NCBI GenBank assembly: GCA_049509755.1
Contig: JBEKZP010000001.1
Span: forward strand, 208,210 to 272,209
Source: Terriglobales bacterium
Lineage (GTDB): Bacteria; Acidobacteriota; Terriglobia; Terriglobales; Acidobacteriaceae
Reading direction: 5' to 3'
Length of the DNA stretch: 64,000 nt
Made by a program: the position numbers and the translations under genes. This document shows positions 1-57,403 of this stretch, piece after piece; position 1 is the stretch's first letter, and each line of letters starts with the position of its first letter. The notes under the pieces are model-generated. The model was given only the letters and a program-made list of their open reading frames with translations. It had not been told where the DNA came from and searched no databases.

Positions 1-57
1 AGTCGGTCGATCAGTCAACCGGCTAACCGACCGATTGACCAAGAGACCGAACGACCG
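1..57. repeat. Partial palindrome built from tandem short oligomers (GTCGGTC/GACCGA-type), cut by the window edge; it sits downstream of prs
   Basis: Arms agtcggtcgatcagtcaaccgg and ccgaccgattgaccaagagaccgaacgaccg are reverse-complementary runs of the same short unit. Confidence 0.4.
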
Positions 58-60
58 TTG

Positions 61-1017
61 CTACACGAACAACTTGCTCACCGAGGTCTCTTCGTGAATG
101 GACTGGATCGCGCGCGCGACCAGCCCGGCGATGGAGAGCACCTTGATCTTGGGCTCGTTCCGTCCCGCCTCGGAGAGCGGAATCGTGTTGGTCACCACCA
201 CCTGCTCAATCGGCGACTTGGAAATTCGTTCGATGGCCGGCCCCGACAGCACCGGGTGGGTGGCGCAGGCGACCACTTTGCTGGCGCCGCTTTCCACCAA
301 CGCGTTGGCCGTCTTCACCAGCGTTCCGGCGGTATCAATGATGTCGTCGAGGATGAGGCAGGAGCGGCCCTTGACGTCGCCGATCACGTGCATGACTTCC
401 GTCTCATCGATGTCGACGCGGCGTTTATCCACGATGGCGAGCGCCGAATCCATTTTCTTGGCGAAAAACCGGGCGCGCTCCACGCCGCCTGCATCCGGCG
501 AAACCACGGTCAGGTCGGGGTACGCCTTCTCCCTGAAATGACTTACCAGCACCGGCGAGGCGAACAGGTGGTCCACCGGGATGTTGAAGAAACCCTGGAT
601 CTGCGGCGCGTGCAGGTCCACGATCAGGGCGCGATCGGCGCCGGCGGTGGTCAGCAGGTCGGCGACCAGCTTGGAGCTGATGGGCGAGCGCGGCTTGTCC
701 TTGCGGTCCTGGCGCGCGTATCCGTAGTACGGAATTACCGGCGTGATGCGGCGGGCGGAGGCGCGCTTGAGCGCGTCAATCATCAGCAGCAGCTCCATCA
801 GGTGCGAATCCACCGGATGGCAGGTGGGCTGCAAAACGAAGACGTCAGCGCCGCGCACATTTTCCAGGATCTGCACGTAGTGCTCGCCGTCGGAAAAGCG
901 CGTGATCTGCGTCTGCCCGCGCGGGATACCGAGGAAGGCGCAAATCTCGTCGGCCAGCGCCGGGTTCGCCGTGCCGCAGAAAATCTTCAGCCGGTCGTCG
1001 CTGCGGCCTCGCATCGG
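61..1017 (-). CDS. prs: Ribose-phosphate pyrophosphokinase (PRPP synthetase). The ORF extends to 1158, but Met48 (1017) gives the canonical ~318-aa length
   Basis: Translation has the RLKIFCGTANPALA...VVSPDAGGVERAR...DDIIDTAGT motifs typical of Prs. The N-terminal 47 aa are low complexity. Confidence 0.9.
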   Translation of the reverse strand, partial: PMRGRSDDRLKIFCGTANPALADEICAFLGIPRGQTQITRFSDGEHYVQILENVRGADVFVLQPTCHPVDSHLMELLLMIDALKRASARRITPVIPYYGYARQDRKDKPRSPISSKLVADLLTTAGADRALIVDLHAPQIQGFFNIPVDHLFASPVLVSHFREKAYPDLTVVSPDAGGVERARFFAKKMDSALAIVDKRRVDIDETEVMHVIGDVKGRSCLILDDIIDTAGTLVKTANALVESGASKVVACATHPVLSGPAIERISKSPIEQVVVTNTIPLSEAGRNEPKIKVLSIAGLVARAIQSIHEETSVSKLFV

Positions 1018-1194
1018 CTTACGCTCCTTCGGCTGTGTGCCGGCGTCCTTCTTTTCGTGCACTGTCGTAGCCACCGTGGTTGCCATAGCATTGCTCGCTG
1101 ATGCTGTCCGCATCTCAGTGGGATCGACTGCCTGGCCCGGTTTTTGCGCGGTCTGCATGAAAGCTCTTAGCTGTTAGCCCTTGGCGATTAACTC

Positions 1195-1268
1195 TGGCTG
1201 GGCGGCCAGGATTCGAACCTGGACAAAGTGCTCCAAAGGCACTTGACCTACCATTAGTCGACCGCCCA
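1195..1268 (-). tRNA. tRNA-Gln (anticodon TTG)
   Basis: The reverse complement gives a 74-nt cloverleaf, TGGGCGGTCGACTAATGGTAGGTCAAGTGCCTTTGGAGCACTTTGTCCAGGTTCGAATCCTGGCCGCCCAGCCA, with anticodon loop CTTTGGA and a 3' CCA. Confidence 0.85.
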
Positions 1269-1276
1269 ATCCCATT

Positions 1277-3199: not shown

Positions 3200-3207
3200 G
3201 AACAGTT

Positions 3208-3278
3208 ATGAGTTGTGAGTTCTGAGTGATCGTGGGTTCGAGTGGCCGCACTCGCAACTCAGAACTCGCAACTCGGGT
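3208..3278. repeat. Hairpin of tandem GAGTTGYGAGTTCTGAG units and their complement. It overlaps the 5' end of ORF 3242
   Basis: gagttgtgagttctgagtg pairs with cactcgcaactcagaactcgcaactc. Confidence 0.7.
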
Positions 3279-3286
3279 ACTCCCCA

Positions 3287-3493
3287 ATGTTTGAAAAACT
3301 TCTCCAGTTGCTCTCCATGACCTGCCGCCACAAGCACACTTCGCAGCCCTTTGCGGCCGCGGTTTCCGCCGCGCCGGCAGCGGCCTCTGGGGAATGGGAA
3401 TCGGTGGGCGCCGGCACCGGCCACTACATCGTTTGCCTGGATTGCGGGAAGAAGTTCCCCTATGACTGGGCGAACATGCGCCGCATCGGGTGA
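3287..3493 (+). CDS. Small Cys/His-containing zinc-ribbon-like protein (~68 aa from Met16 of ORF 3242..3493). The ORF's first 15 codons are encoded by the hairpin repeat
   Basis: MTCRHKHT...YIVCLDCGKKFPYDW, with hairpin repeats on both flanks. Confidence 0.45.
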   Translation: MFEKLLQLLSMTCRHKHTSQPFAAAVSAAPAAASGEWESVGAGTGHYIVCLDCGKKFPYDWANMRRIG

Positions 3494-3555
3494 CGAGTTG
3501 CAAGTCCCGAGTCCCGAGTTGCGAGCGGGCACTCGCGACCCACGACTCGCGACTG
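3494..3555. repeat. Hairpin of CGAGTYSCGAGT-type tandem units between the small ORF and the murJ stop
   Basis: cgagttgcaagtcccgagtcccgagttgcgagcg is complementary to cactcgcgacccacgactcgcgactg. Confidence 0.6.
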
Positions 3556-3559
3556 TCTG

Positions 3560-5161
3560 TCACCTCACCCGCCTGAGCCGGCGCCACACGCCTTCCATCA
3601 TCGAAATCCCCATCCAGTGGGTCAGCAGCAGGTAGATCCCACCAAACGGCAGCAACACGCAGGGTCCGACCAGCAGCGGTGAGCGGCCCGGCAACGCGAT
3701 CTCAATTCCGTATCCGGCGGCCGCGGCCAGCAGCGCGGCGAGCCACATTTTCAGCACGCGTGCCGTGGAGTAGGGCACGGTCCCAATGCGGCTCTGCAGC
3801 GATCTGCGCAGCAGGACAAACTCGATCCACCCGGCAATGCCGGCCGACAGCGTCAATCCGGCAACTCCCCAGCGCCGGTCGATGCCGAGCAAGGGCGGCA
3901 GCGGCAGCGCGCAAAAGTAGCCCAACGCCAGCGTGAGCGCGACACGAATTACGGCGAACTTCAACGGCGTGCGCGTATCCCGCAGCGCGTAAAACGCCGA
4001 CGAGTACAGCCGACCCGAGGTCGAGGCCAGCAATCCGACCGCCGATCCCGCCAGTACTCCCCAGACGTAGGTCACGTCGCGGGCGGTGAACTGGCCGGAA
4101 CGGTAGATGGTCGCCACCACCACGTTACCCAGGAAGAGGAACGCCGCCGCCGAGGGGACCACGAAAAAAGCGATCTGCTGAAGTCCCTGCGCCAGTCGCT
4201 GCCGCAGCGCAGTGGCAATCTCCTCGGGGCTGCCCAGGGCGCTCGACATCGCAGGCAGTTCGGCGGCCGACACCGACATCCCGAACAGGCTTACCGGCAG
4301 CGCATAGAGCGTTTGCGCATAGCTGAGCGCCGCCACCGCCCCGGTGGGCAGAAAGCTGGCTAGCAGGGAATCAATGTAAGCGCTGATCTGCACCACGCCG
4401 CGGCTGACAAATACCGGGAAGAAATTCTTCACCACGCTGTGGACGTGCTCGGAACCCAACCTTTTCGGAATCCGCAGGGGACGCAGGAAGCGCAGCACGG
4501 CGGGAAGTTGCACCGCAAACTGCAGCGCGCTGCCGGCCACCGACCCCAGGGCGACCGTCACCGCCAGCCGGGGCTGGGTTTGGTGTCCGCCCTTCCACAG
4601 AAACGCGGCAATAATCGCCGCATTCCACAGGATCGGGGCGGTGTAAGAAAGCAAGAACCTGCGATGGCTGTTGAGAACGCCGAGACACCACGCCGAAAAC
4701 ACCAGCAGCCCCGCGCCCGGAAACAGGACTTGGACCAGGCGGATGGTGAGCAGCCGCTTATCGCCCGAGAAACCCGGGGCGATGGCGGCAATCAGCCATG
4801 GCGCCGCGAATACGCCCGCCACCACCAGCACGGAGGTGATCAGGAATAAAAAGACGAATGTCGCTTCCGCCGTTTCCGAGGCTTCATCGTGGCGCTGCTC
4901 GGCATTCAGCCGCGCATAAACCGGAATGAAGGAAGCGGACAGCACTCCCTCGCCGAACAGGTTCTGCAGGAAATTGGGAATGCGAAAAGCGGCGCGGAAG
5001 GCGTCGGCGGCATCGGAGTTGCCAAAGTAGTGGGCGAAGACGCGATCGCGCACCAGGCCGGCAATCCGGCTGAGGAAAATTCCCAGCGCGACGGTGGCAG
5101 CAGAGCCCCGACCCGCTGATTCCTGTTTTCCGGGCTCTGCGTTTTCCGCGGGCGTGGACAT
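3560..5161 (-). CDS. murJ: Lipid II flippase MurJ/MviN
   Basis: Polytopic membrane protein with the conserved MurJ N-terminus (LGIFLSRIAGLVRDRVFAHYFGNSDAADAFRAAFRIPNFLQNLFGEG). Confidence 0.9.
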   Translation of the reverse strand: MSTPAENAEPGKQESAGRGSAATVALGIFLSRIAGLVRDRVFAHYFGNSDAADAFRAAFRIPNFLQNLFGEGVLSASFIPVYARLNAEQRHDEASETAEATFVFLFLITSVLVVAGVFAAPWLIAAIAPGFSGDKRLLTIRLVQVLFPGAGLLVFSAWCLGVLNSHRRFLLSYTAPILWNAAIIAAFLWKGGHQTQPRLAVTVALGSVAGSALQFAVQLPAVLRFLRPLRIPKRLGSEHVHSVVKNFFPVFVSRGVVQISAYIDSLLASFLPTGAVAALSYAQTLYALPVSLFGMSVSAAELPAMSSALGSPEEIATALRQRLAQGLQQIAFFVVPSAAAFLFLGNVVVATIYRSGQFTARDVTYVWGVLAGSAVGLLASTSGRLYSSAFYALRDTRTPLKFAVIRVALTLALGYFCALPLPPLLGIDRRWGVAGLTLSAGIAGWIEFVLLRRSLQSRIGTVPYSTARVLKMWLAALLAAAAGYGIEIALPGRSPLLVGPCVLLPFGGIYLLLTHWMGISMMEGVWRRLRRVR

Positions 5162-5179: not shown

Positions 5180-5266
5180 GTGCGAGTTGCGAGTTCCGAG
5201 TTGCGGCTTGTGAGTCCCGCGGACGGTTACGCGCAGGGGACTCGGGACTCGCGACTGGCGACTCCC
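5180..5266. repeat. Hairpin of tandem GCGAGTTSC units and their complement in the murJ / MBL-rhodanese intergenic region
   Basis: gtgcgagttgcgagttccgagttgcggcttgtgagtccc ... gggactcgggactcgcgactggcgactc. Confidence 0.7.
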
Positions 5267-6678: not shown

Positions 6679-6698
6679 AACCCATCCACCACGGAGGC

Positions 6699-6730
6699 AC
6701 CCCTCGGCCGCGCTCGGGGCAGGCTCCGAC
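6699..6730 (-). repeat. Copy of the dispersed ~30-nt element (GAGCCTGCCCCGAGCGCGGCCGAGGGGTG on the minus strand)
   Basis: Matches the consensus GAGCCTGCCCTGAGCGAAGTCGAAGGG. Confidence 0.7.
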
Positions 6731-6737
6731 AAGGAGC

Positions 6738-6850
6738 ATTTCGTAATTTGGTAATTGGGTAATTTAGTAATTTGCCGGTTTTCTAATTCACATCGAACGT
6801 ACTCGGGTTCAAGAATTACCAAATTAGCAACTTACGAAATTGCTAAATCT
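6738..6850. repeat. AT-rich GTAATTT-family hairpin downstream of the MBL-rhodanese gene
   Basis: tcgtaatttggtaattgggtaatttagtaatttg ... caagaattaccaaattagcaacttacgaaattgctaaatc. Confidence 0.75.
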
Positions 6851-6893
6851 CCTTCCGTGCCTCCGTGCCTCCGTGTCTCCGTGGTGAGCTTCC

Positions 6894-7655: not shown

Positions 7656-7740
7656 CGGCTTACCCCACATCCTTAGAACCCCAATTTTAGCGCGAAGACG
7701 CAAGAGAGTGGCTGCCGGTACGTGTTGGGTTAATGGGGAT

Positions 7741-7905
7741 AAGGGCTGTGGCTGTTGAAAAACTCACTTGCCGGAAATCCGCAGAAATTAGGTCGCGTCA
7801 GGATGCCCTACAAACGATTTTCTCTGGTCGCCTAGACATTTTCTATCCCCCAAATTTGCTGTGGTTTCTGAAATCTCGAGTTTTTCAACAGCCACGGCTG
7901 TTATC
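7741..7905. mobile_element. MITE-like element: ~45-bp imperfect terminal inverted repeats with a 21-bp near-identical core (GCTGTGGCTGTTGAAAAACTC) flank a ~70-bp AT-rich core
   Basis: The left end gctgtggctgttgaaaaactcacttgccggaaatccgcagaaatt matches the reverse complement of the right end aatttgctgtggtttctgaaatctcgagtttttcaacagccacggctgtt. It lies in a low-GC pocket. Confidence 0.5.
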
Positions 7906-9624: not shown

Positions 9625-9655
9625 CCCCGGGCTTACGCCCGGGGCTAGTTTCTGC
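9625..9655 (+). terminator. Rho-independent terminator candidate
   Basis: GC hairpin ccccgggcttacgcccgggg followed by the T-rich ctagtttctg, immediately after the stop of the upstream gene. Confidence 0.5.
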
Positions 9656-9762
9656 CGCCGCTACGCGGCTGGATTCGCGACTGGCGATCAATCCCATATC
9701 ACCAGCAATCCCCGTTGGTTTCCGCGCGCTGCTTAAGTTCAGTAGCTCGTGCGCGAGCCCCG

Positions 9763-9794
9763 CAGAGCCTGCCATGAGCGAAGTCGAAGGGTCA
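9763..9794 (+). repeat. Copy of the dispersed ~30-nt element
   Basis: cagagcctgccatgagcgaagtcgaagggtca. Confidence 0.7.
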
Positions 9795-9833: not shown

Positions 9834-9866
9834 TAGAGCCTGCCCTGAGCGCAGTCGAAGGGGACG
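9834..9866 (+). repeat. Copy of the dispersed ~30-nt element
   Basis: tagagcctgccctgagcgcagtcgaaggggacg. Confidence 0.7.
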
Positions 9867-13189: not shown

Positions 13190-13202
13190 GAAAAAACCTT
13201 GG

Positions 13203-42116: not shown

Positions 42117-45100
42117 GCAGTCGGTTTTTCCGACACCTCCGACGTAATCAACCCGGCGACTTCGGTCGTTTTCTTGGCGAGTCGATATGCCCAGCGTCCA
42201 TATGTGCCTTCTGCGTTCACAGCGGCAACCCATCTGTCAGCAGCAGCGCGTTTGACATCACCCAGTGGGTCGAAGCCTTTTGTTTCGACGATTACATGGA
42301 TTGGCGGGTCACTTTTCAGCCGCACGATGAAGTCGGGCATGTAGTCGTGCATCTGCCCGTTGTGAAGGTACGGGATCGCGAAGCCCAAGCCAGCATTCTT
42401 CACGAAAGCGTCCACCATCGGGTGGGTGTCTATGTAGTACGCCGCTGCCTGTTCCCACTTCGCGGTATCTGGTACTACGTAGTTCAAATGGCTATGCACA
42501 GCTTCGCGTGGTTCACGGCTCGTCCAGAAGCCCACTTCGGCAGTTGAACCGGGGCCACGGCTCGATTCGTACAGCGGAATCTCCGGCGTCTCGCCTTCGC
42601 TGGTGTCCGGGTGAATGTTCTCCGTCAGAATCTCCACCAACCAGCCGTAGTACGGCGATAGCCCCGCGTCTTTAATATCGGCAGGCGGACGTACATCGAC
42701 GTGGTCTTTGAGATAACGCTCGACGATTCGCGCAATCTGCGGGAAGAGGACGTGTGCCGGTGCTTGACACTGCGGCTGCGAGACATAGTGCTTCGTCAGT
42801 CCTGACGCAATATCGAACACGAGTTCTTGAACGCGCCGCTTCTTTCGGTACTCCTGCAAGGTAACTTTGCTGATCCGGTTCGGTCCATTAAGCGACATCC
42901 TACCCGCAGTGTTTACGCTAAGCCCCTTCGCCTCGTACTCCGGCGGAATCGAGTCGGGCGTCAGCACCAGCATGGGCACCTTGGCCCAGTCCATCGTCAC
43001 CTTGTTGCGAATGGCCTGGGTGTAGCCCTCGACGCGCGGGAAGCGAATCTCGTACTTTGCCTTCTCGGGGATCGCATGGACGTGGTAACGCTTCGGACGC
43101 GGGGTGCCGGGTGTCCGAGAGGTCGCTTTGAAGGGGATCACCTCGAACGGCACGCCAAGCACCTTCGAGACCTCTTCCGTAAACTTGCCGTTTTCGCCTA
43201 CCTCGTAACTGGCTCGCCGCAAGCCACGCCCTACCACTTGTTCGCACAGCAACTGCGACATGAACGGACGTATGCCGATAATGTGTGTGACCGTGTTGCA
43301 GTCCCAGCCCTCGGTGAGCATTCCGACGCTCACAATGCAGCGCACGTCACGTCCAGGCGGGTGAAGCGGTCGTTTCAGCTTCTTCGCCAGCTCCTCGAAG
43401 CCTTCCGGGTAGATCGGGCGTCCCTGCTTATCAGCAGGCCAGTTCGTCTTGCCAACCGTATCGAGCGTTAACCGCATCCAGCGCGATTCATCGCTCTTGG
43501 CTTCTCCCGTATCGGTTTCGTGAACTACCTTCGAATCGACGCGGATCGTGTTGATCTGCCCCTTGGCGTTCCTGAACCCCTCGATTTTCGCTGGCGGAAT
43601 TCCGGTCGGCGCTTCGTTGTTCGCCAGCCAGGCGTAGATCATTTTCGCGATCCTCGTGTTCTTGCAAACGAGGATGAAAACTGGCGGGCGTGGTTCAGTG
43701 CCACTCTTCTCCCAGTCCTCGCGTTCTTTCTCCCACTGCCCGGCCAGCATCGCAATCGGATGGTGGGCATACTTCAGGATCGCTTCGGGTTTGGCGCTGC
43801 CCTTCTTGCCCCCGCGCTCGGCTGGCGTCAGTTGCGGCTGAATCCACTGCCAGATGTTGAAATAGGCCGGATACTCCTGCCCGGTCGTATCGCGGATCGC
43901 AAGTTGGGGAATCTTCACCAGCCCGGACTCAATCGCGTCAATCAGGCCGAAGTCGCTCACAATCCACGGAAATGGCTTGTTTTGCTCCTGGCCGATTCTG
44001 CCGAGAAAATACGGTGTGGCTGAAAGATCAACACAGAAGTTAATGCCGCGCTGCTTATTGATCTTGTCCAGCCCATCTACCCAGACGGTCGCTTCGTCAC
44101 GCTCCGCCAGCCAATCATCGCGCTCGTCTTCCTCCAACTGTTCCCAGTCGTCTGGCCGTTCTTGCAAGATGCGATAGGCGTGGTGCGCCTCGTCATTCAT
44201 TACGAGAATGTTCTGCTTTCCGCCAATCTCCCGGCCCAGCACGCGATTAATCAGAGCCGTGTCGCTCTCGACATAGCGCACTGACTCGACTTTCACCTTC
44301 TTGAGATTACCTTCTTTGTCGTGCTCTTCTTCGATCACTGTGAGCAGCCCGGCTGTCACCTGTCGCTCGTAATCCTTCAGGCTAAGGTAGCGCGTGCCTC
44401 GGGCGGTCGTGCTTTTCGGACCGATGGTGATCGTCTCCCTCGTTCGCACGGGCACCCCAGCCTTCGTAACTTTCGAGCCAACTCCGCCCACCTGCACACT
44501 CTGAGGCTCGAACACGTGCCAGTTCGTCACCAGCACTTTGCCTTGCGTGAGAAGCGGCATCAGGTGCGGAGGCACCAGATCGCGAGTCCGGTAAATACTG
44601 GCCTCGCCCAGTTCGGGGTCGAGTTCACGCAGGCGGTTGCGGATGGTGACGTTTGGGCAGACGGCAAGCACTATTTCAGAGAAACGGGCGTCACTGCGGT
44701 TATTGACCTTGTTGAGAATGCTCCAAGCCGCGAGCATTCCCATTACCGCGGTCTTGCCTGCTCCAGTTGCCATCTTGCAGGCGTACCGCTGGAATCCCTG
44801 GTAGCCTTCGGCCTTCCGCTCTTCACTCGGCTCGTCGCGTGGAACGGTGATGCCTTGTAGAAAGTCTTGCCGGCCTTCAGTGATGAAGATCACGGTGAGG
44901 GCAGCTTCAAGTTGGGCGAAGAACAGCCGCTTCTCGCGACCGTCTCGTGTCCACCATTGGATTAGTTCCAGCGTGGTGCGAGTGACGCCGGGATAGCCCG
45001 CTTGCTGCCACGCCTCAAGTCGCTCTCGAACGAGGTTCACCAGCCCAAGCTCAAAGCCGTAGGGGAAATCCTTTGAAGTCCGCAGAACCGTGCCGTCAAC

Positions 45101-45277
45101 TGTCCATGCCTCACGCTGATCTTTGGGTGGGAAGATTACGGCGGGTCTTCGCTTGGAGTGCTCTGGCGAACAGGGCCTCTGTTCGGGCTGCTCACCTTCG
45201 CGGATATACCAGTACCGCGTGGGCTTCTCGAAAGGCGAGTTCAGGATCGGTTCTGATACTTCTACGTACTCGCTCAT
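42089..45277 (-). CDS. res: Type III restriction-modification system restriction subunit (Res; SF2 helicase plus nuclease)
   Basis: Walker A GAGKT and a DEAH-like VMNDEAHH in a 1062-aa protein immediately downstream of a Mod methyltransferase. Confidence 0.85.
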   Translation of the reverse strand: MSEYVEVSEPILNSPFEKPTRYWYIREGEQPEQRPCSPEHSKRRPAVIFPPKDQREAWTVDGTVLRTSKDFPYGFELGLVNLVRERLEAWQQAGYPGVTRTTLELIQWWTRDGREKRLFFAQLEAALTVIFITEGRQDFLQGITVPRDEPSEERKAEGYQGFQRYACKMATGAGKTAVMGMLAAWSILNKVNNRSDARFSEIVLAVCPNVTIRNRLRELDPELGEASIYRTRDLVPPHLMPLLTQGKVLVTNWHVFEPQSVQVGGVGSKVTKAGVPVRTRETITIGPKSTTARGTRYLSLKDYERQVTAGLLTVIEEEHDKEGNLKKVKVESVRYVESDTALINRVLGREIGGKQNILVMNDEAHHAYRILQERPDDWEQLEEDERDDWLAERDEATVWVDGLDKINKQRGINFCVDLSATPYFLGRIGQEQNKPFPWIVSDFGLIDAIESGLVKIPQLAIRDTTGQEYPAYFNIWQWIQPQLTPAERGGKKGSAKPEAILKYAHHPIAMLAGQWEKEREDWEKSGTEPRPPVFILVCKNTRIAKMIYAWLANNEAPTGIPPAKIEGFRNAKGQINTIRVDSKVVHETDTGEAKSDESRWMRLTLDTVGKTNWPADKQGRPIYPEGFEELAKKLKRPLHPPGRDVRCIVSVGMLTEGWDCNTVTHIIGIRPFMSQLLCEQVVGRGLRRASYEVGENGKFTEEVSKVLGVPFEVIPFKATSRTPGTPRPKRYHVHAIPEKAKYEIRFPRVEGYTQAIRNKVTMDWAKVPMLVLTPDSIPPEYEAKGLSVNTAGRMSLNGPNRISKVTLQEYRKKRRVQELVFDIASGLTKHYVSQPQCQAPAHVLFPQIARIVERYLKDHVDVRPPADIKDAGLSPYYGWLVEILTENIHPDTSEGETPEIPLYESSRGPGSTAEVGFWTSREPREAVHSHLNYVVPDTAKWEQAAAYYIDTHPMVDAFVKNAGLGFAIPYLHNGQMHDYMPDFIVRLKSDPPIHVIVETKGFDPLGDVKRAAADRWVAAVNAEGTYGRWAYRLAKKTTEVAGLITSEVSEKPTAQEAQTSSR

Positions 45278-48051
45278 TACTTCGCCTCTCTGAGGCTCTT
45301 TACAATCAGCAATTCGTTACCACGGTCGTCAATCACCTTGATTGCGACTTGGCCCTGCTCTCCGGTCTCAAACGGCGCACTGACGGTTCCGGCAAGATGA
45401 TCCCAAACTGTGTCCTCGTACTCGCCCTTGAGGGCTTTCTTCAAGCCCTCCCATGCACCGGTACGCGGAAAGAACGCTTGCGAAACGTGGAAGCACAGGC
45501 CGTTGTAATCAGTGTCGAGAAACCAGGCGGGCACGTCTTCAGCGTTACCGTGATGGGCTTCCATTGCAATCGGGTCGAACACATCAAGGCCCAGCAACTC
45601 GACCTCGTACTGCTGCGTCCCATTGCTCTTTCCTGCCTTGCGAACCTCGGCTTCCGGCAGGCCGCACACGCTGAAGATTTGGCTCGACCGCATGTGCTTG
45701 AGCAGGTCGCCCATCATCAGGTCAGGAGTCGCCTGCACGTAGGTTGCGGGGATGCCGACCGCTTCGGCGCATTGCTCGACTAACATGCGAGCATTGGGCT
45801 GAATAGCGAAGCCGATCACGTACAGGTGGGTATAGTTCTTGGCGTTCGCTTCCTTGGCCGCCTGATAGACCAGCTTCTCACTCACCGCGCCATTCTCGGG
45901 GCCAAAGACAAAGGCAACGGTCTTCTGCGAAAGTGGTAGTGCTTTGCCGTTTTTCTCGGCTGCCTCTTGCACCGCTTCGGCGAGCGTTGCCCTCTGGCCG
46001 GGAGCAGTTGCGTCCACCATTGCCTCAGCGGAGAGCGCAAGCGTCTTGGCAGGCGGGCGGACGTTCTTGAGAGTTACGCTCTTGTTGCCTTCCAGACGCA
46101 GCACCGGGGACTTCCGCAGAATTTCCAGCATCCGATCAACGAACGAGCCATGCCCGGTCTGTCCTTGCTGATCGCTTGCGGCTGATGTTTGAGCGCTTTC
46201 CTCGAAATCCTGTGGCGTCGGAATTGTCGCTTCGAGCGTGAACGGCCCGGTCACGCGAGTAATACCGTTCTGAATCTCCGGGCGGTCAACCAATACTTCC
46301 TCTTCGGGCGGTTCGTTGTTAGCAATCGACTTGAGCGTTACGTGAGGAACGATCCCGCCCACCTCTTCGCCCTTTGTATTCTGCTTCCGTTTGTAGACGA
46401 ACCCCGCCGCTGGCCCGCGCGACTCGTCATTGAGTCCATACCAATCGAACGTCGCCGTCAGCAAGCGCTGACGCGCAAGTGCCAGTGGAACGCGGCTTGT
46501 ATCAATGGTGATCCAGCGTCGGCCCCATTGTTCCGCGACATAGGATGTCGTTCCGCTGCCACAAGTTGGATCGAGCACAAGATCACCAGGATCGGTTGTC
46601 ATCAAGAGACAGCGTTCGATCACTCTTGGAGTTGTCTGTACAACGTACAGCTTCTGCGCGGCAAAGCCGGAAATGCCGGTGTCATCCCACATGTTTGAAA
46701 CTGGGAACACTGGGAAATCGTCCAGGAATCTCACATATCTGAGGCTGTTTCCCACGACGAAAAGCCTTCCTGCTCGCGCAAGGTTCTCCAATCCTTTCAG
46801 GTCTGATTTGAATGTTCCACGCCCCGGCGTGAACCGCTTCCCGTCAAACGCAAACTCCTTCACGTCGCCTTCCTGTGCGGGGCGCTGGCTTGTCATGTCG
46901 CCGTGTTGGAAAATATGTGAACCGGGGGGAGCTTCGAGCTTAAGACGCTCGAAAGAACCGAAATTTCTTCGCGTGCCATCTGGCAACTCAGCCCATGTGT
47001 ATTGGGTTGCGCCAGCCTCGCCGGGTTCTTTCTTCAGGTAGAGTTGCCGGTATTTCACGCGCTCTTTGTCTTTTGCGTACCACAAGAGGTAATCGCTGAC
47101 AGCCGACAGCAGATTCCCCGATGCGCTGCTTGTCTTAACGAAGGTTATAACGCCGCAAAAGTGCTCGTTCCCGAATACCTCATCCAGCAATTCTCGGACA
47201 TGGTGTAAATTCTGGTCGCTGATCTGGACGAAGATGCTGCCGGTCTCTGCGAGTAAGTCGCGAACGAGAAATAGGCGATCTCGAAGGTAATTCAGATAAG
47301 AGTGCTCGTTCAGTTCCCAGATGTCCCGGTACGCCTGCACCATCTCTGGCTCACGGGTCATGTCCTCATCATCATTGTGCTGCACGTCACGCTTGCGAAC
47401 GAACGGCTGGAAGTTCGAGCCGAACTTCACACCATACGGCGGGTCGAGGTAGATCATCTGCACTTGCCCGCCGAGGTTCTCGTACCGCAGCAGCGAGTTC
47501 ATCACCACGAGCGAGTCGCCGAGGATCATCCGGTTAACCCACTTGTCGCGGTGCTCGTAGGCGCGGAGAACCTGATCGGCAATGGAATGCTGCGGATCGC
47601 CGAACAGGTCGAACATATCCGTCTGCTTATCGCGCTTGTGACCCTTCAGTGTTTCGAGGATCGCCTTCGTCGAGAGCCGTTCATGGATGAACAGCGGCAG
47701 TGTGGGCACGTCGAACGAGATGCGCTCGGCCTTGCCCGCCCAGTTCAGGAAGGGCTTGCTCATGGCCTTCAGCTTGGCGACCGCAAACTTCGCGGTTTCC
47801 AGCGTCTCGGCTTGGAGCGCCTCACGGATTAGCGCCTCGCCCCGTTCTCGCGCCGGGTTCTGGCCATCCCATTCCAGCGCCGGGGACAGCGAGTCGTCGT
47901 AGCGGTATTTCTTGGGTTCTTTGCGCTTTTTGAACTGCGCTTGCGTGCCCACCTCTGGCCGCATCGGGCTATCAGAGGTCGGGTGCTTGTAGTTCTGGGC
48001 AGACTTGGCGTTCGCCTTGCCTCGCCTGGTGCCGGTCCTGCCGTTCGCCAT
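45277..48051 (-). CDS. mod: Type III R-M modification subunit (Mod; N6-adenine DNA methyltransferase)
   Basis: DPPYG catalytic motif (MIYLDPPYGVKFGSN) and the SAM-binding region (LVLDPTCGSGTTSYVAEQWGRRWITID). Confidence 0.85.
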   Translation of the reverse strand: MANGRTGTRRGKANAKSAQNYKHPTSDSPMRPEVGTQAQFKKRKEPKKYRYDDSLSPALEWDGQNPARERGEALIREALQAETLETAKFAVAKLKAMSKPFLNWAGKAERISFDVPTLPLFIHERLSTKAILETLKGHKRDKQTDMFDLFGDPQHSIADQVLRAYEHRDKWVNRMILGDSLVVMNSLLRYENLGGQVQMIYLDPPYGVKFGSNFQPFVRKRDVQHNDDEDMTREPEMVQAYRDIWELNEHSYLNYLRDRLFLVRDLLAETGSIFVQISDQNLHHVRELLDEVFGNEHFCGVITFVKTSSASGNLLSAVSDYLLWYAKDKERVKYRQLYLKKEPGEAGATQYTWAELPDGTRRNFGSFERLKLEAPPGSHIFQHGDMTSQRPAQEGDVKEFAFDGKRFTPGRGTFKSDLKGLENLARAGRLFVVGNSLRYVRFLDDFPVFPVSNMWDDTGISGFAAQKLYVVQTTPRVIERCLLMTTDPGDLVLDPTCGSGTTSYVAEQWGRRWITIDTSRVPLALARQRLLTATFDWYGLNDESRGPAAGFVYKRKQNTKGEEVGGIVPHVTLKSIANNEPPEEEVLVDRPEIQNGITRVTGPFTLEATIPTPQDFEESAQTSAASDQQGQTGHGSFVDRMLEILRKSPVLRLEGNKSVTLKNVRPPAKTLALSAEAMVDATAPGQRATLAEAVQEAAEKNGKALPLSQKTVAFVFGPENGAVSEKLVYQAAKEANAKNYTHLYVIGFAIQPNARMLVEQCAEAVGIPATYVQATPDLMMGDLLKHMRSSQIFSVCGLPEAEVRKAGKSNGTQQYEVELLGLDVFDPIAMEAHHGNAEDVPAWFLDTDYNGLCFHVSQAFFPRTGAWEGLKKALKGEYEDTVWDHLAGTVSAPFETGEQGQVAIKVIDDRGNELLIVKSLREAK

Positions 48052-48842: not shown

Positions 48843-48916
48843 GGCAGTGATCAGTGCTCAGTGGCCAGCAGTCAATGGCAAGAACTGGCCACTAGCCACT
48901 GACCACTGGCCACTCA

Positions 48917-50077: not shown

Positions 50078-50084
50078 AAAGGCA

Positions 50085-50135
50085 GCTCTTAGCTTTTAGC
50101 TTTTAGCTATTAGCAATTAGCGACTTCGTCCAGCA
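50085..50135. repeat. Tandem TAGCTTT-type heptamer repeat forming a partial hairpin
   Basis: agctcttagcttttagcttttagctattagcaattagc. Confidence 0.55.
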
Positions 50136-51800: not shown

Positions 51801-52532
51801 ATGAAGCCACAAGCGCAAGAGCGACGCATCGGGCTGGCGCGGGCGATGTCGAAGCGCGGCAGTTGCTCGCGTTCGCAGGCGAGCGAGATGATCCGCGCCG
51901 GGCGGGTGCGTCTGAACGGCAAAGTGCGGCGCGATCCGGAAACGCCGGTGCGTCTGGAACGCGATCGGATCACGCTCGACGGACAGCCGCTCCAGGCACT
52001 AGAGAAGGTCTACCTGATGCTGAACAAGCCGCGCACCGTGGTTACGACGGCATCGGACGAAGCGGGGCGGAAGACGGTGTACGCCTGCCTGCCACCGGGG
52101 CTGCCGTGGGTGGCGGCGGTGGGCCGTCTGGATATGGCGAGCGAGGGCCTGCTGCTGATGACCAACGATTCGGAGTGGGCGGCGCGGATCACGGCGCCGG
52201 AGTCGCACCTGGACAAGCGGTATCACGTGCGGGTGGGCGCGAAGGCGGAAGAGGAATTGCTTCAAAAGATGATGGCGGGCGTGGAGAGCGAGGGTGAGTG
52301 GCTGCGGGTGAAGCGGGTCGAAGTGCTGCGCCACGGAGGGCGCAATTGCTGGCTTAAGGTGGTGCTGGACGAGGGCAGGAACCGGCAGATTCGCAGGATC
52401 ATGCAGGCGCTGGGAGTGGAGGTTTTGAGGCTGGTGCGGGTAGCGATCGGGCCGGTGGAGCTGGGTGAGCTGAAAAAAGGGCAGGCGCGACGGTTAACGC
52501 CAAAAGAGAAGGCCGCGTTGGATGATTTGTGA
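51801..52532 (+). CDS. Pseudouridine synthase, RsuA/RluB family (S4 domain plus catalytic domain). The ORF track starts far upstream at 50925; the ATG at 51801 gives 243 aa
   Basis: GSCSRSQASEMIRAGRVRLNG S4 motif, and YLMLNKPRTVVTT plus GRLDMASEGLLLMTND around the catalytic Asp. Confidence 0.8.
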   Translation: MKPQAQERRIGLARAMSKRGSCSRSQASEMIRAGRVRLNGKVRRDPETPVRLERDRITLDGQPLQALEKVYLMLNKPRTVVTTASDEAGRKTVYACLPPGLPWVAAVGRLDMASEGLLLMTNDSEWAARITAPESHLDKRYHVRVGAKAEEELLQKMMAGVESEGEWLRVKRVEVLRHGGRNCWLKVVLDEGRNRQIRRIMQALGVEVLRLVRVAIGPVELGELKKGQARRLTPKEKAALDDL

Positions 52533-52605
52533 TTTAGCGATTTGTGATTTGCGGGAAGTCGTCAGTCTTCGGCGGTCAGTGCCAGTGACTGAGGACTGAA
52601 GACCA
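52533..52605. repeat. Tandem GATTTGT-type repeats followed by a CAGTGAC-type inverted repeat
   Basis: tgatttagcgatttgtgatttgcg ... agtcgtcagtcttcggcggtcagtgccagtgactgaggactgaagac. Confidence 0.55.
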
Positions 52606-52610
52606 ATGGC

Positions 52611-52787
52611 CTAGTGCCAGAAGGGGTCGCCGATGCCGGTTGGCTTGAGGGCGGAGTCGGGCGTGTCTGCCGTGGTGTTCCACTTTCCGGGCTCGGAATC
52701 GCGCTGCGGTGGCGGCGGAAAATCATCTCCTGTACAGCCGCACGGATTCAAGTTCGTGTATTCGGAATGGCAGTTGGGGCAAACCAT
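52611..52787 (-). CDS. Small zinc-ribbon protein (58 aa). It is not in the ORF track
   Basis: A GGGAGG RBS 6 nt upstream of the ATG. MVCPNCHSEYTNLNPCGCTGDDFPPPPQRD... has a CPxC...CxC cysteine cluster and is flanked by repeat elements. Confidence 0.5.
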   Translation of the reverse strand: MVCPNCHSEYTNLNPCGCTGDDFPPPPQRDSEPGKWNTTADTPDSALKPTGIGDPFWH

Positions 52788-52908
52788 GGGATCGCCTCCC
52801 TATACAGATACGAGCTTAGGGAAATCAAGGCAGGCAGGGAAATTCAAAATTTAGTTAGGCGCGATTCAGAAAAATAATGGAAGAACGGGGAAGCGGCGCC
52901 GCGGTGCA

Positions 52909-52938
52909 GCCGTTCCCTTCGACTTCGCTCAGGGTCAC
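52909..52938 (-). repeat. Copy of the dispersed ~30-nt element. The minus strand contains the exact core CCCTGAGCGAAGTCGAAGGG
   Basis: The plus strand reads gccgttcccttcgacttcgctcagggtcac. Confidence 0.7.
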
Positions 52939-53105
52939 GCTGACGCAAGCAACTGCCGGCTAACGGCAGCGCTTAAGAACGCGATGGGAAAGACCCACAT
53001 CTGCCAAAACCGGGCAGATGTGGGGCACCCGGCCACTCGGGACTCGGGTCTGGCGACTCACTTGTGGTTTAATCCTTATCTCTAATCTGAAATCCGAATC
53101 TATTC

Positions 53106-54281: not shown

Positions 54282-54282
54282 G

Positions 54283-54370
54283 ATTTGTAATTGGTAATTT
54301 GTAATTTGTAATTTCCGGCGCTGCCGCAGATGGTTTTCAAATTACAAATTACAAATTGCAAATTACAAAT
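54283..54370. repeat. AT-rich TTGTAAT/ATTACAA-family hairpin between aroC and def
   Basis: atttgtaattggtaatttgtaatttgtaatttcc ... caaattacaaattacaaattgcaaattacaaatc. Confidence 0.8.
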
Positions 54371-54378
54371 CAGCACGC

Positions 54379-54891
54379 ATGATCTATCCCATCGTTAAGC
54401 TCGGCGACCCGGTGCTGGACAAGCCAGCGGAGAAGGTGACGAAGTTCGACGACGAGCTGCGCAAGCTGCTCGACGACATGTTCGAGTCCATGTACGCGGC
54501 GCACGGCGTGGGCCTGGCGGCGCCACAGATCGGCATTTCCAGGCGCATCGCGGTGATCGATATCACGTTCAAGGAAGACCCGGACGCCAAGCTGGTGCTG
54601 ATCAATCCGGAGATCATCCACAAGGAAGGCCGGCACACGCAGCAGGAAGGCTGCCTCAGCCTGCCGGAGTTCCGCGAGAACGTGACGCGGCCGCGCGTGG
54701 TGACCGTGCGCGCGCAGGATGCGAAGGGAAACTGGTTCGAGAAAACCGGCGACGACCTGCTGGCGCGCGCGCTGATGCACGAGACCGATCACCTTAACGG
54801 CAAGCTGTACATCACGCACATTTCGGCGCTGAAGCGCGACCTGATCAAGCGCAAGGTGAAGAAACTCATAAAGCAGGGGGAGTGGAAGTAA
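54379..54891 (+). CDS. def: Peptide deformylase
   Basis: GVGLAAPQIG, EGCLSLP and HETDHLNG motifs. Confidence 0.9.
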   Translation: MIYPIVKLGDPVLDKPAEKVTKFDDELRKLLDDMFESMYAAHGVGLAAPQIGISRRIAVIDITFKEDPDAKLVLINPEIIHKEGRHTQQEGCLSLPEFRENVTRPRVVTVRAQDAKGNWFEKTGDDLLARALMHETDHLNGKLYITHISALKRDLIKRKVKKLIKQGEWK

Positions 54892-54990
54892 TTGGTAATT
54901 TCGTAATTTGGTAATTTTGTAATTTAACAAGTTGCAGCGCCGGTCGAGCCTCTCCAAATTACCCAATTACCAAATTACCCAATTACCAAA
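54889..54990. repeat. AT-rich GTAATTT-family hairpin between def and fmt. The right arm runs into the fmt start
   Basis: taattggtaatttcgtaatttggtaattttgtaattt ... caaattacccaattaccaaattacccaattaccaaatgg. Confidence 0.8.
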
Positions 54991-55979
54991 TGGACGTAAT
55001 CTTCTGTGGCACCCCGCAATTCGCCGTGCCCACGCTGCAGGCGCTGATGAACGCCGACGCCGGGCATCGCGTGCGCCTGGTCGTGACCCAGCCGGACCGC
55101 CCCAGCGGACGCGGCATGGAACTCAGCGCGCCACCGGTGAAGCAACTGGCGCAAAGGCTCGGCCTGGAGGTGACGCAGCCGGAAAAAATCAAAAACAATT
55201 TGGAATTTCGCGCGCGGCTGGAGGAGATCCGGCCGGAGGCGATCGTGGTGGTCGGCTACGGGCGCATCATTCCGCAATGGATGATTGACCTGCCGCCGCT
55301 GGGAAACATTAACCTGCACGGCTCGCTGCTGCCGAAATATCGCGGCGCGGCGCCGGTGCAGTGGGCGATCGCGTCGGGCGAGACCGTCACCGGCGTGACC
55401 ACCATGCGGATTGACGCCGGGCTGGACACGGGCGACATCCTGCTGCAGCGCGAGACGCCAATCGCGGCGGAGGACACGGCGGTCACGCTGGCGCCTCGGC
55501 TGGCGGAGATGGGCGCGCCGCTGATGGTGGAAACACTCGCGGGATTGAAGGCGGGTACAATCACGCCGCGCCAGCAGGACGATGCGCAAGCGACGCTGGC
55601 GCCCATTCTGAAGAAAGAAGACGGGCTGATTGATTTTCGCCGCCGCGCGCGCGAGATCTGCAACCGCCTGCGCGGGTTTCAGCCCTGGCCGGGGGCATAC
55701 ACCACGTTCCGCGACAAGAGCCTGAATGTGTGGGCGGCGATACCGGCGGAGGAGTCAGGAATCGGGAGTCAGGAGTCAGCGGTCGCGCCCGGCGAGCTGA
55801 GCGTGGACAAGGACCGGTTATTCGTCTTGTGCGGCGAGCGGACTGTGTTGGAATTGTTGACCGTGCAGCCGGAAGGGAAGAAGAGGATAGCGGCGCGGGA
55901 TTTTATTCACGGGTATCATCCGAAAACGGGGGAGCAGTTGGGAACTGAAAAACACAGAGACACAGAGGCACAGAGATAA
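54990..55979 (+). CDS. fmt: Methionyl-tRNA formyltransferase
   Basis: VIFCGTPQFAVPTLQAL...HGSLLPKYRGAAPVQWAI. The last ~10 codons are encoded by the ACAGAG repeat. Confidence 0.9.
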   Translation: MDVIFCGTPQFAVPTLQALMNADAGHRVRLVVTQPDRPSGRGMELSAPPVKQLAQRLGLEVTQPEKIKNNLEFRARLEEIRPEAIVVVGYGRIIPQWMIDLPPLGNINLHGSLLPKYRGAAPVQWAIASGETVTGVTTMRIDAGLDTGDILLQRETPIAAEDTAVTLAPRLAEMGAPLMVETLAGLKAGTITPRQQDDAQATLAPILKKEDGLIDFRRRAREICNRLRGFQPWPGAYTTFRDKSLNVWAAIPAEESGIGSQESAVAPGELSVDKDRLFVLCGERTVLELLTVQPEGKKRIAARDFIHGYHPKTGEQLGTEKHRDTEAQR

Positions 55980-56010
55980 TTTCTTCCTCTGTGTCTCTGT
56001 AACTCTGTGT
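55951..56010. repeat. Hairpin of tandem CACAGAG units and their complement. The left arm lies inside the fmt 3' coding end
   Basis: acacagagacacagaggcacagagataatttcttcctctgtgtctctgtaactctgtgt. Confidence 0.75.
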
Positions 56011-56032
56011 TCATCATTTTCTTTGGGTCACC

Positions 56033-57364
56033 ATGCCCTCTCCTGCGCGCGAAGCCGCGTTCGACATCCTGCTCCGCGTGGAGCAGCAGCAGGCGTACGC
56101 CTCCGAGCTGTTGCATTCCGATCACGTCGATAAGCTCTCTCCGCAGGATCGCAACCTTTGCACCGAACTGGTGATGGGAACTTTGCGCTGGCGCGCGAGG
56201 CTGGACCTGGGCATTGGCGCGGTGTCGTCGCAGCCGCTGGAAAAGCTCGATCCGGAGGTGCTGACAGCGCTGCGGCTGGGCGCGTACCAGATCGGGTTCC
56301 TGCGGCTGCCGGCGAGGGCGGCGGTGAATGAGAGCGTCGAACTGGTGAAGCGGGCGCGATTTCGGTACTCCGTGCCGTTCGCCAACGCCGTGCTGCGCAA
56401 GCTGGCTGAGAAGCCCAAGCTGATGGAACCGGCGCCGGGGCCGGGGCCGAAGACGGTGCTGGACGTCGCCGCGCTGCACGCCCATCCGCTGTGGCTGGTG
56501 AAGCGTTGGGCGGAGCGCTACGGCATCGAAACCGCGGACAAGATCTGCGCGTTCAACCAGCAGGTGCCCGAAACCGCGCTACGGCTGCGCGATCCGGCGG
56601 CGGAAGAGGAATTGCGGCGCGAGGGCATTGAATTGAAATCCGGCGCGCTGCTCACTTCCGCGCGGCGGGTGGTCAGGGGCGACGTGACCCACACGGCTGC
56701 GTTTCGCGCCGGGCGTGTTGCCATCCAGGACGAGACGTCGCAACTGGTGGCACTGCTGGTGGGCAGCGGCGAGCGATTGCTGGACTGTTGCGCGGCGCCG
56801 GGCGGCAAGACCGCGATCATGGCGGAGCGCAATCCCGACGCGGAGATCATCGCCGTCGACATTCATCCGCACCGGGCGGCGCTGTTGCAGGAGCGGCTGG
56901 CAGCGCTGCCCAACGTCACCGTCATGATGGCGGATGCGACCGAGCTGCCGGTCTGCGGGCTGTTCGACTGGGTGCTGGCGGACGTGCCCTGCTCCGGCAC
57001 CGGAACGCTGGCGCGCAATCCGGAGATCAAGTGGCGGCTGACGGCCGAGGACCTTGCCGATCTGCACGCGCGGCAGGTGGCCATCGTGAGCGCGACCATG
57101 CAACACGTGCGCAGCGGCGGATGCCTGATCTATTCCACCTGCTCGCTGGAGGAGGAAGAAAATGTGCAGGTGGTGGAAGAGGCATTGCAGTCGCGCGCGG
57201 ACTTCGAAATCGTGGATTGTCGTGCCGAGCTGGAGCGGTTAAAGGAATCGGGCGAGCTGGCGTGGGAGGACATCGACTCGCTCCTCGACGGGCCGTATCT
57301 GCGGACGATTCCGGGCGTGCAGCCGGGGGATGGGTTTTTCGCGGCGATGCTGGAAAAAACCTAG
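56033..57364 (+). CDS. rsmB: 16S rRNA (cytosine967-C5)-methyltransferase RsmB (Sun)
   Basis: NusB-like N-terminus and a C-terminal SAM-MTase (DCCAAPGGKT...DVPCSGTGT...IYSTCSL). The def-fmt-rsmB order is conserved. Confidence 0.85.
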   Translation: MPSPAREAAFDILLRVEQQQAYASELLHSDHVDKLSPQDRNLCTELVMGTLRWRARLDLGIGAVSSQPLEKLDPEVLTALRLGAYQIGFLRLPARAAVNESVELVKRARFRYSVPFANAVLRKLAEKPKLMEPAPGPGPKTVLDVAALHAHPLWLVKRWAERYGIETADKICAFNQQVPETALRLRDPAAEEELRREGIELKSGALLTSARRVVRGDVTHTAAFRAGRVAIQDETSQLVALLVGSGERLLDCCAAPGGKTAIMAERNPDAEIIAVDIHPHRAALLQERLAALPNVTVMMADATELPVCGLFDWVLADVPCSGTGTLARNPEIKWRLTAEDLADLHARQVAIVSATMQHVRSGGCLIYSTCSLEEEENVQVVEEALQSRADFEIVDCRAELERLKESGELAWEDIDSLLDGPYLRTIPGVQPGDGFFAAMLEKT

Positions 57365-57403
57365 CCACGGATCGCCACGGATGAACACGGATCGGATTCG
57401 TGG
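57365..57403. repeat. Tandem CACGGAT-type repeat with a partial palindrome after rsmB
   Basis: ccacggatcgccacggatgaacacggatcggattcgtgg. Confidence 0.6.

Follow-up and report, generated by a model that had tools for sequence, protein, structure and literature searches.

A 64,000-nt stretch of DNA from a Terriglobales bacterium (Acidobacteriota), part of a soil/peat metagenome contig with a GC content of approximately 63% and referred to here as the window, carries numerous intergenic hairpins whose arms are built from tandem copies of a short oligomer. These hairpins probably belong, as gene-less members, to a widespread palindromic element class of the intervening sequence (IVS) type that is associated with genes of the PF05635 family. 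This conclusion is drawn from the architecture of the hairpins, which is that of the gene-bearing form of the element, and from two orthologous sites at which gene-bearing and gene-less forms alternate. The underlying observation is real and highly non-random, and the elements are unusually dense and diverse in this acidobacterial lineage. An earlier note on the same DNA had proposed that the hairpins were generated locally, each with a unit of its own, and probably serve as terminators or RNA-stability elements. The evidence below indicates that they are neither locus-specific inventions nor evidently terminators.

Frequency and anatomy of the window hairpins

The 20 elements that we counted are all intergenic, with protein-coding or tRNA genes as neighbors, and occupy 18 of the 39 intergenic regions of at least 30 nt (six of seven convergent, nine of 23 co-directional, and three of nine divergent regions). 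The earlier note placed them at nearly every gene boundary, which overstates their frequency. A strict inverted-repeat scan (arms of at least 16 nt, complementarity of at least 80%, and loops of at most 90 nt) returned 27 matches in 10 clusters, compared with 0–2 matches in shuffled sequence, and the arms were periodic in all 10 clusters. Intergenic DNA, which makes up 10.8% of the window, contains 27 of the 37 tandem arrays of period 6–10 nt, and shuffling within each intergenic region leaves one or two such arrays. Folding z-scores ranged from -3.5 to -8.3 for 10 of 11 hairpins, with none of 200 shuffles folding equally well, while the hairpin at 3490–3560 has a weaker fold (z = -1.9). Identity across the hairpins was 99.98–100% among four independent assemblies, and the sequence is therefore not an assembly artifact. 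Loci L001–L004 derive from the same strain (at least 99.98% identical) and are thus uninformative with respect to population variation. L001 has periodic hairpins with a GTTTCA unit at 15937–15994, between a 245-aa open reading frame (ORF) and a Pept_tRNA_hydro gene, and at 17074–17168, between the ribosomal S6 and S18 genes. As these lie outside the window, close to its start, the hairpin density continues outside the window.

Each arm consists of three to five copies of a unit in which a constant core (GTAATT, GAGT, CACGGAT, CGGTC, CAGTG, or ACAGAG) is combined with one to three variable positions. The unit size was previously put at 7–9 nt; within the window we observed periods of 7, 8, and 10 nt, and the adjoining part of L001 adds a period of 6 nt. 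The arms are 18–40 nt long and 78–94% complementary, enclose loops of 11–49 nt, and form terminal inverted repeats with stems of at least approximately 25 bp, composed, as in IVS-type elements, of tandem heptamers or octamers. The elements start only a few nucleotides from the upstream stop codon, several of them 1–5 nt after it, and the last codons of ispE and fmt are supplied by hairpin arms. Four elements fill successive spacers along aroC-def-fmt-rsmB. Of 16 window hairpins, 14 have more G than C in the 5′ arm (p = 0.004).

A common architecture with varying sequence, as described in the earlier note, is confirmed, and every site listed there contains the repeats reported. Most of these are hairpins, but the arrays at 39683–39716 (GCCTTGG) and 50084–50121 (TTAGCWW) are one-armed, as is a third at 16296–16316, and 57364–57403 is not a complete hairpin but the 5′ arm of a long-range one whose partner lies approximately 150 nt away. 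The 5′ arm of another long-range hairpin, at 52523–52551, has its partner approximately 520 nt away. Nested arrangements occur at 6688–6883, 52523–53100, and 57364–57580. Not every locus has a unit of its own: approximately ten families serve the 20 sites, several of them recurrent (GGTAATTT at five sites, GAGTNNC at four or five, and CACGGAT and CGGTC at two each), as could already be seen from the list in the earlier note. The AT-rich islands mentioned there are confined to the GGTAATTT, GTAATTT, and TGATTTG families.

Gene-bearing elements and orthologous sites

PF05635 is annotated as 23S rRNA intervening sequence protein (S23p, Avd-like). Only two PF05635 genes were present in 1.6 Mb of Terriglobia loci, in L086 and L021, and both lie inside inverted tandem arrays, the hairpin loop in each case holding an insert of approximately 450 nt that encodes the protein (E = 4e-31 and 1e-36, respectively). 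As such genes are found in these relatives and no PF05635 ORF is found in the window, the window copies are taken to be gene-less forms. The two genes mark two sites that alternate. At the metallo-β-lactamase (MBL)/murJ site, the element is gene-bearing in L086, between GAGTACC arms, and gene-less in L085 and in the window, with GAGTNNC arms. At the mreB/mreC site, gene-bearing elements (L021 and L093–L096, AGGGAAC arms), a gene-less AGGGAYY hairpin (L307), and an empty state with an ordinary small hairpin (L308–L321) were all found. Comparison of filled and empty mreB/mreC sites gave no evident target duplication, the boundaries being blurred by repeats.

Orthologous spacers, whose comparison the earlier note had proposed, retain a periodic hairpin in the closer relatives (MurJ identity of 95, 89, 87, and 86%) while its unit or copy number turns over. 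In the spacer between the 68-aa ORF and the bactofilin gene, the unit is GAGTTGC in the window, L085, and L090, AAGTCAG in L089, and GATGGTC in L086. In the MBL/murJ spacer it is GAGTCSC or GAGTTGC in the window and GAGTACC in L085 and L086. When the orthologous murJ loci of other Terriglobia species were sampled (80 loci, 1.55 Mb), the density of tandem arrays per base was approximately 4.5-fold lower than that of the window, and inverted tandem pairs numbered three, compared with six in the 64 kb of the window. The high hairpin density is therefore characteristic of this lineage. The GGTAATT, CACAGAG, and CACGGAA families, together with further ones, also occur in high-GC contigs from other samples. 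A search for GTAATT arrays in viral contigs returned mostly AT-rich viral tandem repeats, together with a few high-GC contigs, which represent DNA of related acidobacteria, contain the hairpin families of the window, and have no PF05635 gene.

A metagenome scan with the L086 and L021 proteins yielded 80 PF05635 loci, 76 of them with enough flanking sequence, and in 60 of these 76 the gene is flanked by inverted repeats, nearly all of which are tandem 7- or 8-mers. The architecture is found around PF05635 genes of five phyla: two inverted arrays of three to six tandem 7- or 8-mers, with the G-rich arm first and abutting the upstream stop codon. Arms have a median length of 32 nt and 4.4 copies, and their units include AGGGAAC, AGGGACT, AGGGAGC, CAGTGAC, CAGTTGT, AGTTTCG, AGTTCAC, GGTTAGT, TTAGGG(G), TTTAGGG, and others. 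The left arm begins at most about 10 nt from the stop codon of the upstream gene; this gene and the PF05635 ORF point in the same direction in 37 cases and in opposite directions in seven. The ORF starts a median of 42 nt after the first arm (14–126 nt, 10th–90th percentile) and ends a median of 19.5 nt before the second (7–40 nt). G exceeds C in the 5′ arm of 59 of 61 gene-bearing elements (p = 2e-15); this polarity is thus common to gene-bearing and gene-less forms, and it is strand-symmetric. The two forms are also alike in period, copy number, arm length, and placement relative to stop codons, and they have unit types in common (CAGTG.., GAGT..., TTAGC.., and, from L001, GTTTCA). Arm sequences follow the phylogeny of the proteins (Mantel r = 0.64, not reached in any of 999 permutations), and among 24 element pairs with at least 80% protein identity, 14 have non-homologous flanks. 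The 376 kb around the 80 PF05635 genes contain only one gene-less periodic hairpin, which argues that the arms move together with the gene and are no pre-existing target.

PF05635 genes enclosed in the same way are also present in Pseudanabaena, Geminocystis, Nostoc punctiforme, Stanieria, Gemmatirosa, and Riemerella, with plasmids among the replicons concerned. On plasmid pPg_01 of Pseudanabaena galeata (L174, 45674–47218), a PF05635 gene sits in a CRISPR-cas locus between cas6 and cas4, flanked by AAAAGCT and AAAAGCC arrays of about 15 and 9 copies. Longer arms are seen in L159 (102–864), where approximately 160 nt are made up of some 23 heptamers in which AGTTCAC, AGTTCGT, and AGTTCTT alternate, and in L164 and L150 the arms, (T)TAGGG(G) and TTTAGGG, are identical in sequence to the telomere repeats of eukaryotes. 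The PF05635 ORF of Azospirillum lipoferum (L176), with GGACAGA/GGACGGA arms, lies within 23S rRNA according to Rfam and is thus a genuine IVS.

IVSs with an S23p ORF are known in the 23S rRNA of Leptospira and Coxiella, and gene-less rRNA IVSs in Salmonella, Yersinia, and Campylobacter. The Coxiella IVS has a 28-bp stem of tandem GACAGAT heptamers and an S23p ORF, is cut by RNase III at the first repeat, and differs among strains by whole heptamers, so that copy number varies (PMC4990558). The GACAGAT heptamer was also found in L154. Like rRNA IVSs, the window elements have terminal inverted repeats and a long stem of tandem heptamers, and their gene-bearing relatives encode the same protein family. 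Unlike them, they lie between protein-coding genes rather than in 23S helices 25 or 45, comprise approximately ten unit families at very high density, and, in contrast to the S23p-bearing IVSs, lack the S23p ORF. An Rfam scan of the window detected only tRNA-Gln and Acido-Lenti-1 RNA above threshold, with no rRNA and no family covering the hairpins.

In Xanthomonas, approximately 186 (GGGANTN)n sites per genome have been described, mostly of four units, 89–93% of them intergenic, approximately 28 nt from the upstream ORF, and including 70–75 convergent inverted pairs per genome, with length and sequence varying between sister species (Rehm et al., 2015; PMC4692102). That work does not mention S23p or PF05635 (no occurrences of "S23"; PMC4692102). 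The prediction that a Xanthomonas PF05635 gene would be flanked by such heptamers held true: a PF05635 gene between accB and accC is flanked by GGGAATC heptamers, with CGGGAATCGGGAGTGGAGAATCGGGAATCGG upstream and CCCATTCCCCATTCCCGACTCCCTATTCCC downstream. This gene, the orthologue of the structurally solved XCC0516 (PDB 2GSC), lies in the aroQ-accB-accC cluster at 3001–3330 of L181, L184, and L185, a position kept across many Xanthomonas species. The window units resemble the Xanthomonas repeats in combining a conserved core with variable positions, in forming convergent pairs of about four units, and in their intergenic location near the end of the upstream ORF; they differ in lacking a G3–4 tract per unit and in comprising many families rather than one G-rich family. 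Cyanobacterial short tandemly repeated repetitive sequences (STRRs) are intergenic heptamers of several families, described as direct arrays. To our knowledge, their definition includes neither hairpin pairing nor a link to PF05635. Tandem heptamer arrays nevertheless flank cyanobacterial PF05635 genes as well, and the TTAGCNN unit is common to the window and Pseudanabaena, the TTAGC.. unit of window positions 50084–50121 also flanking the Pseudanabaena gene. PF05635 proteins match the bAvd profile, below its curated cut-off, and in this they resemble the accessory protein Avd of diversity-generating retroelements (DGRs). Unlike Avd genes, PF05635 genes have no reverse transcriptase and no template/variable repeat beside them and stand alone between housekeeping genes.

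Origin of the hairpins and competing explanations

In the explanation that we favor, the full-length element consists of three to six tandem 7- or 8-mers, a small PF05635 gene encoding a four-helix bundle, and a complementary tandem array, and its rRNA-resident members are the classical 23S rRNA IVSs. The gene-less hairpins would have been derived from gene-bearing elements, or mobilized alongside them, and would have multiplied to about 280 per Mb in this lineage. The arrays are clearly remodeled by slippage; replication slippage would alter copy number and homogenize new unit variants, and such remodeling would produce the pattern of the same architecture with different sequence. Arm complementarity would be kept at the DNA level, as element ends, and not through selection on an RNA fold. 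Arm mismatches on the sense strand comprise 45 G·U and 41 A·C (p = 0.75), and this lack of a G·U excess makes the complementarity look like that of transposon ends rather than of a selected RNA fold. By analogy with rRNA IVSs, near-perfect stems of 25–40 bp would, if transcribed, be substrates of RNase III and would thus lead to cleavage or segmentation of operon transcripts, not to their termination.

Several observations weigh against this explanation. Copies of one family share their arms but have unrelated loops, unlike the products of whole-element copy-paste, and at the MBL/murJ site, where only the flanks and the right arm align, the gene-less loops and the interior of the L086 element show no significant homology. 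The commonest window units (GGTAATTT, CACGGAT, CGGTC, and CACAGAG) surround no sampled PF05635 gene. The 74-kb contig (tblastn and profile search) and approximately 36 kb of related high-GC contigs yielded no PF05635 gene or remnant of one, and a search for remnants in the loops at 52.5–53.1 and 57.4–57.6 kb and in the rest of the window gave nothing below E = 1. Among the annotated window genes and the sites compared, we saw no REP-associated tyrosine transposase (RAYT; REP, repetitive extragenic palindromic sequence), other transposase, or target-site duplication. A unit-order permutation test found no mirroring of unit variants between the arms (p > 0.14 in all 12 window hairpins). The correlation between arms and proteins could reflect shared host ancestry, and RNase III cleavage has been shown for rRNA IVSs only. 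Mirror symmetry of unit variants was dropped as a candidate feature of the class, only four of 47 gene-bearing elements reaching p < 0.05.

That each hairpin was instead built on the spot, by slippage combined with fold-back (quasi-palindrome) templating or with selection for stem length and without a mobile or gene-bearing ancestor, is favored by units and copy numbers that differ between close relatives at one site, by one-armed arrays, by arms of up to 23 copies (L159), by loops that differ among copies of one family, and by the heptamers that Coxiella strains have gained and lost. The earlier note was right to the extent that arrays are altered locally, as relatives at 86–95% MurJ identity differ in unit or copy number. 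As a full account of their origin, however, local generation is unlikely, since an AT-rich octamer recurs at five loci of a 63% GC window and, like other odd units, again in related contigs from other samples; since near-identical PF05635 elements sit in unrelated, non-homologous contexts, which speaks against the absence of copy-paste mobility; and since the polarity is common and the architecture as a whole characterizes a gene-bearing element whose tight association with PF05635 crosses five phyla. Unit variants that are unmirrored beyond unit-shuffling also mean that fold-back copying leaves no visible trace. A further alternative assigns mobility to PF05635 gene cassettes, which would insert into loops of periodic hairpins that pre-exist as an independent feature of the host. 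The three nested arrangements do indicate that loops accept inserts, and gene-less pairs far outnumber PF05635 genes in Xanthomonas, but with one gene-less hairpin in the 376 kb around the 80 genes the targets would be vanishingly rare, and the arm-to-ORF layout is too constant for us to consider this anything but improbable. We are similarly doubtful that the arrays are ligands or products of the PF05635 protein itself. TRAP and HutP bind spaced triplets, and as a ligand, each 7- or 8-nt unit might be bound by one subunit of a pentameric Avd-like protein (about four or five units per arm); PF05635 proteins crystallize as five-chain assemblies (2GSC, 2RLD). As a product, G-rich repeats might be added repeatedly to the 3′ ends that face a break, by a telomerase-like joint action of the protein and a polymerase or reverse transcriptase, which would explain the inward G-rich polarity, the telomere-like units (TTAGGG, TTTAGGG, and AACAGGG), and the unrelated loops.

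The position of most hairpins just past stop codons, their presence at six of seven convergent gene ends, and the high stability of their stems would suit RNA elements selected by the host, either intrinsic terminators or REP-like protectors of mRNA 3′ ends. The terminator role envisaged in the earlier note is not supported: on reading, most hairpins lack a U-tract, the divergent promoter regions contain three of them and the aroC-def-fmt-rsmB cluster four, and G·U mismatches are not in excess. Moreover, the window has GC-rich, T-tailed terminators of the ordinary kind at other positions (16323–16355 and 37085–37120), and relatives lack hairpins at the same sites, so that host selection is an improbable explanation for the hairpins. 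The Xanthomonas heptamers and the GGGGA(C/T)T repeats of Nostoc have been read as G-quadruplex motifs, with G-quadruplex formation reported (Rehm et al., 2015; PMC4692102), and at least three GGG tracts are present in the 5′ arm of 43 of 62 gene-bearing elements. It is very unlikely that the window arrays are regulatory repeats of this kind, because their units (GGTAATTT, GAGTTGC, CACGGAT, CGGTC, CAGTGAT, and CACAGAG) have no GGG tracts and yet the architecture is the same. REP sequences and bacterial interspersed mosaic elements (BIMEs), mobilized by a RAYT of the IS200/IS605-like type, are also short, abundant, intergenic palindromes that are sometimes nested. With them and with MITEs (miniature transposable elements that have inverted repeats), the window elements share high copy number and the occasional replacement of the last codons of genes (ispE and fmt); their gene-less copies may likewise depend on a gene-bearing relative. 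Inverted ends are present in the window elements, and their loops are unrelated between copies. An assignment to REP/BIME is nonetheless the most remote of the explanations considered here, because the arms are tandem arrays instead of a single imperfect palindrome, loops are not conserved between copies, several unrelated unit families occur together, no transposase-like gene is found among the annotated window genes, and no conserved GTAG/CGTC head was seen on reading the arms, no formal motif scan having been made. Integron attC sites, which likewise combine a common architecture with varying sequence, were rejected, the neighbors being housekeeping genes in both orientations. The attC core sites are not seen in the window hairpins.

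Parts of this picture are already published, namely the inverted heptamer arrays of Xanthomonas and the heptamer-stemmed IVSs of Coxiella. The link to PF05635, the occurrence in operon spacers of five phyla, and the expansion into multiple families appear to be new within the searchable literature, where we found no publication connecting tandem arrays with PF05635. Ribosomal RNA IVSs, Xanthomonas and cyanobacterial heptamers, and the common "four helix bundle / S23 ribosomal" genes may be facets of one class, whose signature can be searched for: two inverted arrays of tandem 7- or 8-mers that begin with the G-rich arm and may or may not enclose a PF05635 gene. If this link is correct, it would offer a concrete starting point for the function that PF05635/Avd-like proteins have outside DGRs and an origin for rRNA IVSs, would explain the over-representation of heptamers in bacterial genomes, and would predict RNase III-dependent segmentation of housekeeping operons in lineages like this acidobacterium, in which nearly half of the intergenic regions are occupied. 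If the arrays were indeed ligands or products of the protein, a very large uncharacterized family would gain a function, and rRNA IVSs, STRRs, Xanthomonas heptamers, and the window hairpins would be united under one mechanism. For annotation, such hairpins should not be labeled terminators by default.

Individual elements and other features of the window

The first element, a CGGTC-type periodic hairpin at 1–57 on the 3′ side of prs, is cut by the window start; L001 extends the sequence on this side. At 1274–1388, between tRNA-Gln and ispE, a GGTAATTT hairpin of period 8 was also detected by Tandem Repeats Finder (TRF); its arms (1274–1309 and 1352–1387, 4.5–4.8 copies each) are 92% complementary (z = -8.3), and the right arm provides the last approximately five codons and the stop of ispE. 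Three hairpins of period 7 belong to the GAGT type. That at 3204–3276 (GAGTTGY, z = -5.3) lies between the bactofilin gene and the 68-aa ORF, 5 nt past a stop codon, and has orthologous hairpins in L085 and L090 and another unit in L089 and L086. That at 3494–3557 (GAGTYSC, z = -1.9) lies between the convergent 68-aa ORF and murJ, 1 nt past a stop codon. The third, at 5181–5264 (GAGTTGC/GAGTCSC, z = -3.8), occupies the divergent promoter region of murJ and the MBL-rhodanese gene, and the orthologous site of L086 is the one that holds a PF05635 gene between GAGTACC arms. Between convergent genes, an outer hairpin at 6688–6883 (CCACGGAGGCAC ... TCCGTGCC, 3.8 copies) encloses a GGTAATTT hairpin at 6738–6840, whose arms (6738–6764 and 6814–6840) are 89% complementary.

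Further along, a CACGGATNNN hairpin of period 10 is located in the hemY/hemH spacer (13193–13290, z = -8.0), and a CGGTCNNN hairpin of period 8 lies in the divergent region between hemE and a 195-aa gene (15457–15539, z = -4.1). The single GAGTTGT-type arm at 16296–16316 has no partner and is followed by the T-tailed terminator at 16323–16355. A GGTAATTT hairpin of period 8 with approximately five copies per arm separates co-directional genes at 23759–23864 (z = -3.5). The one-armed array at 39683–39716 comprises 4.9 copies of GCCTTGG, and that at 50084–50121 (TTAGCWW, period 7) has no clear partner arm. Between them, in the spacer of a YjbR-like gene and htrA, lies a CAGTGNY hairpin of period 7 (48845–48914, z = -5.1), whose unit type is also present in the arms of the PF05635 elements L155, L162, and L167.

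The long-range pair at 52523–53100 consists of four copies of TGATTTG (52523–52551) and an AATC-periodic arm (approximately 53070–53100); the approximately 520 nt between them hold other repeats, among them a short AGTCNNC-type hairpin at 52556–52605, and a 58-aa ORF. This ORF (52611–52787, minus strand) has a CxxC...CxC motif (MVCPNCHSEYTNLNPCGC...) and no Pfam match. In the aroC-def spacer, a GTAATTT hairpin of period 7 with 4.6 copies per arm and 94% complementary arms begins 1 nt past the aroC stop (54282–54371, z = -7.3), and the def-fmt spacer is filled from the def stop to the fmt ATG by a GGTAATTT hairpin of period 8 (54888–54991, z = -5.4). At the fmt-rsmB junction, the 5′ arm of a CACAGAGN hairpin of period 8 (55943–56019, z = -7.8) encodes the last approximately nine codons of fmt. 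Between the convergent rsmB and PASTA-domain genes (57364–57580), a CACGGATNNN arm at 57364–57394 and a degenerate partner at approximately 57545–57580 enclose two GC-rich hairpins.

Other features of the window were noted alongside these elements. A second dispersed repeat, GCCTGCCCTGAGCGNAGTCGAAGGG, is non-periodic and occurs at 9767–9791, 9838–9862, and 16784–16808 on the plus strand and at 14227–14251 on the minus strand (four matches with at most three mismatches, compared with none expected); similar reverse-complement copies lie near 6700, 15385, and 52895, and the repeat often adjoins or nests with periodic hairpins. The Acido-Lenti-1 RNA (Rfam RF01687, 54 bits, full length) at 9625–9670 on the plus strand, directly after a 172-aa gene, is a GC-rich hairpin (CCCCGGGC...GCCCGGGG); its presence agrees with an origin of the window in the Terriglobales (Acidobacteriota), as do MurJ homologues named Terriglobales or Acidobacteriaceae. 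A 354-nt spacer between two minus-strand genes contains a non-periodic 28-nt inverted repeat (7738–7905) with 89% complementarity and 112 nt between its arms. Finally, an island of lower GC content (57%) at 42089–48051 on the minus strand carries a Type III restriction-modification pair, comprising a 1062-aa Res-like helicase and a 924-aa N6/N4 DNA methylase.

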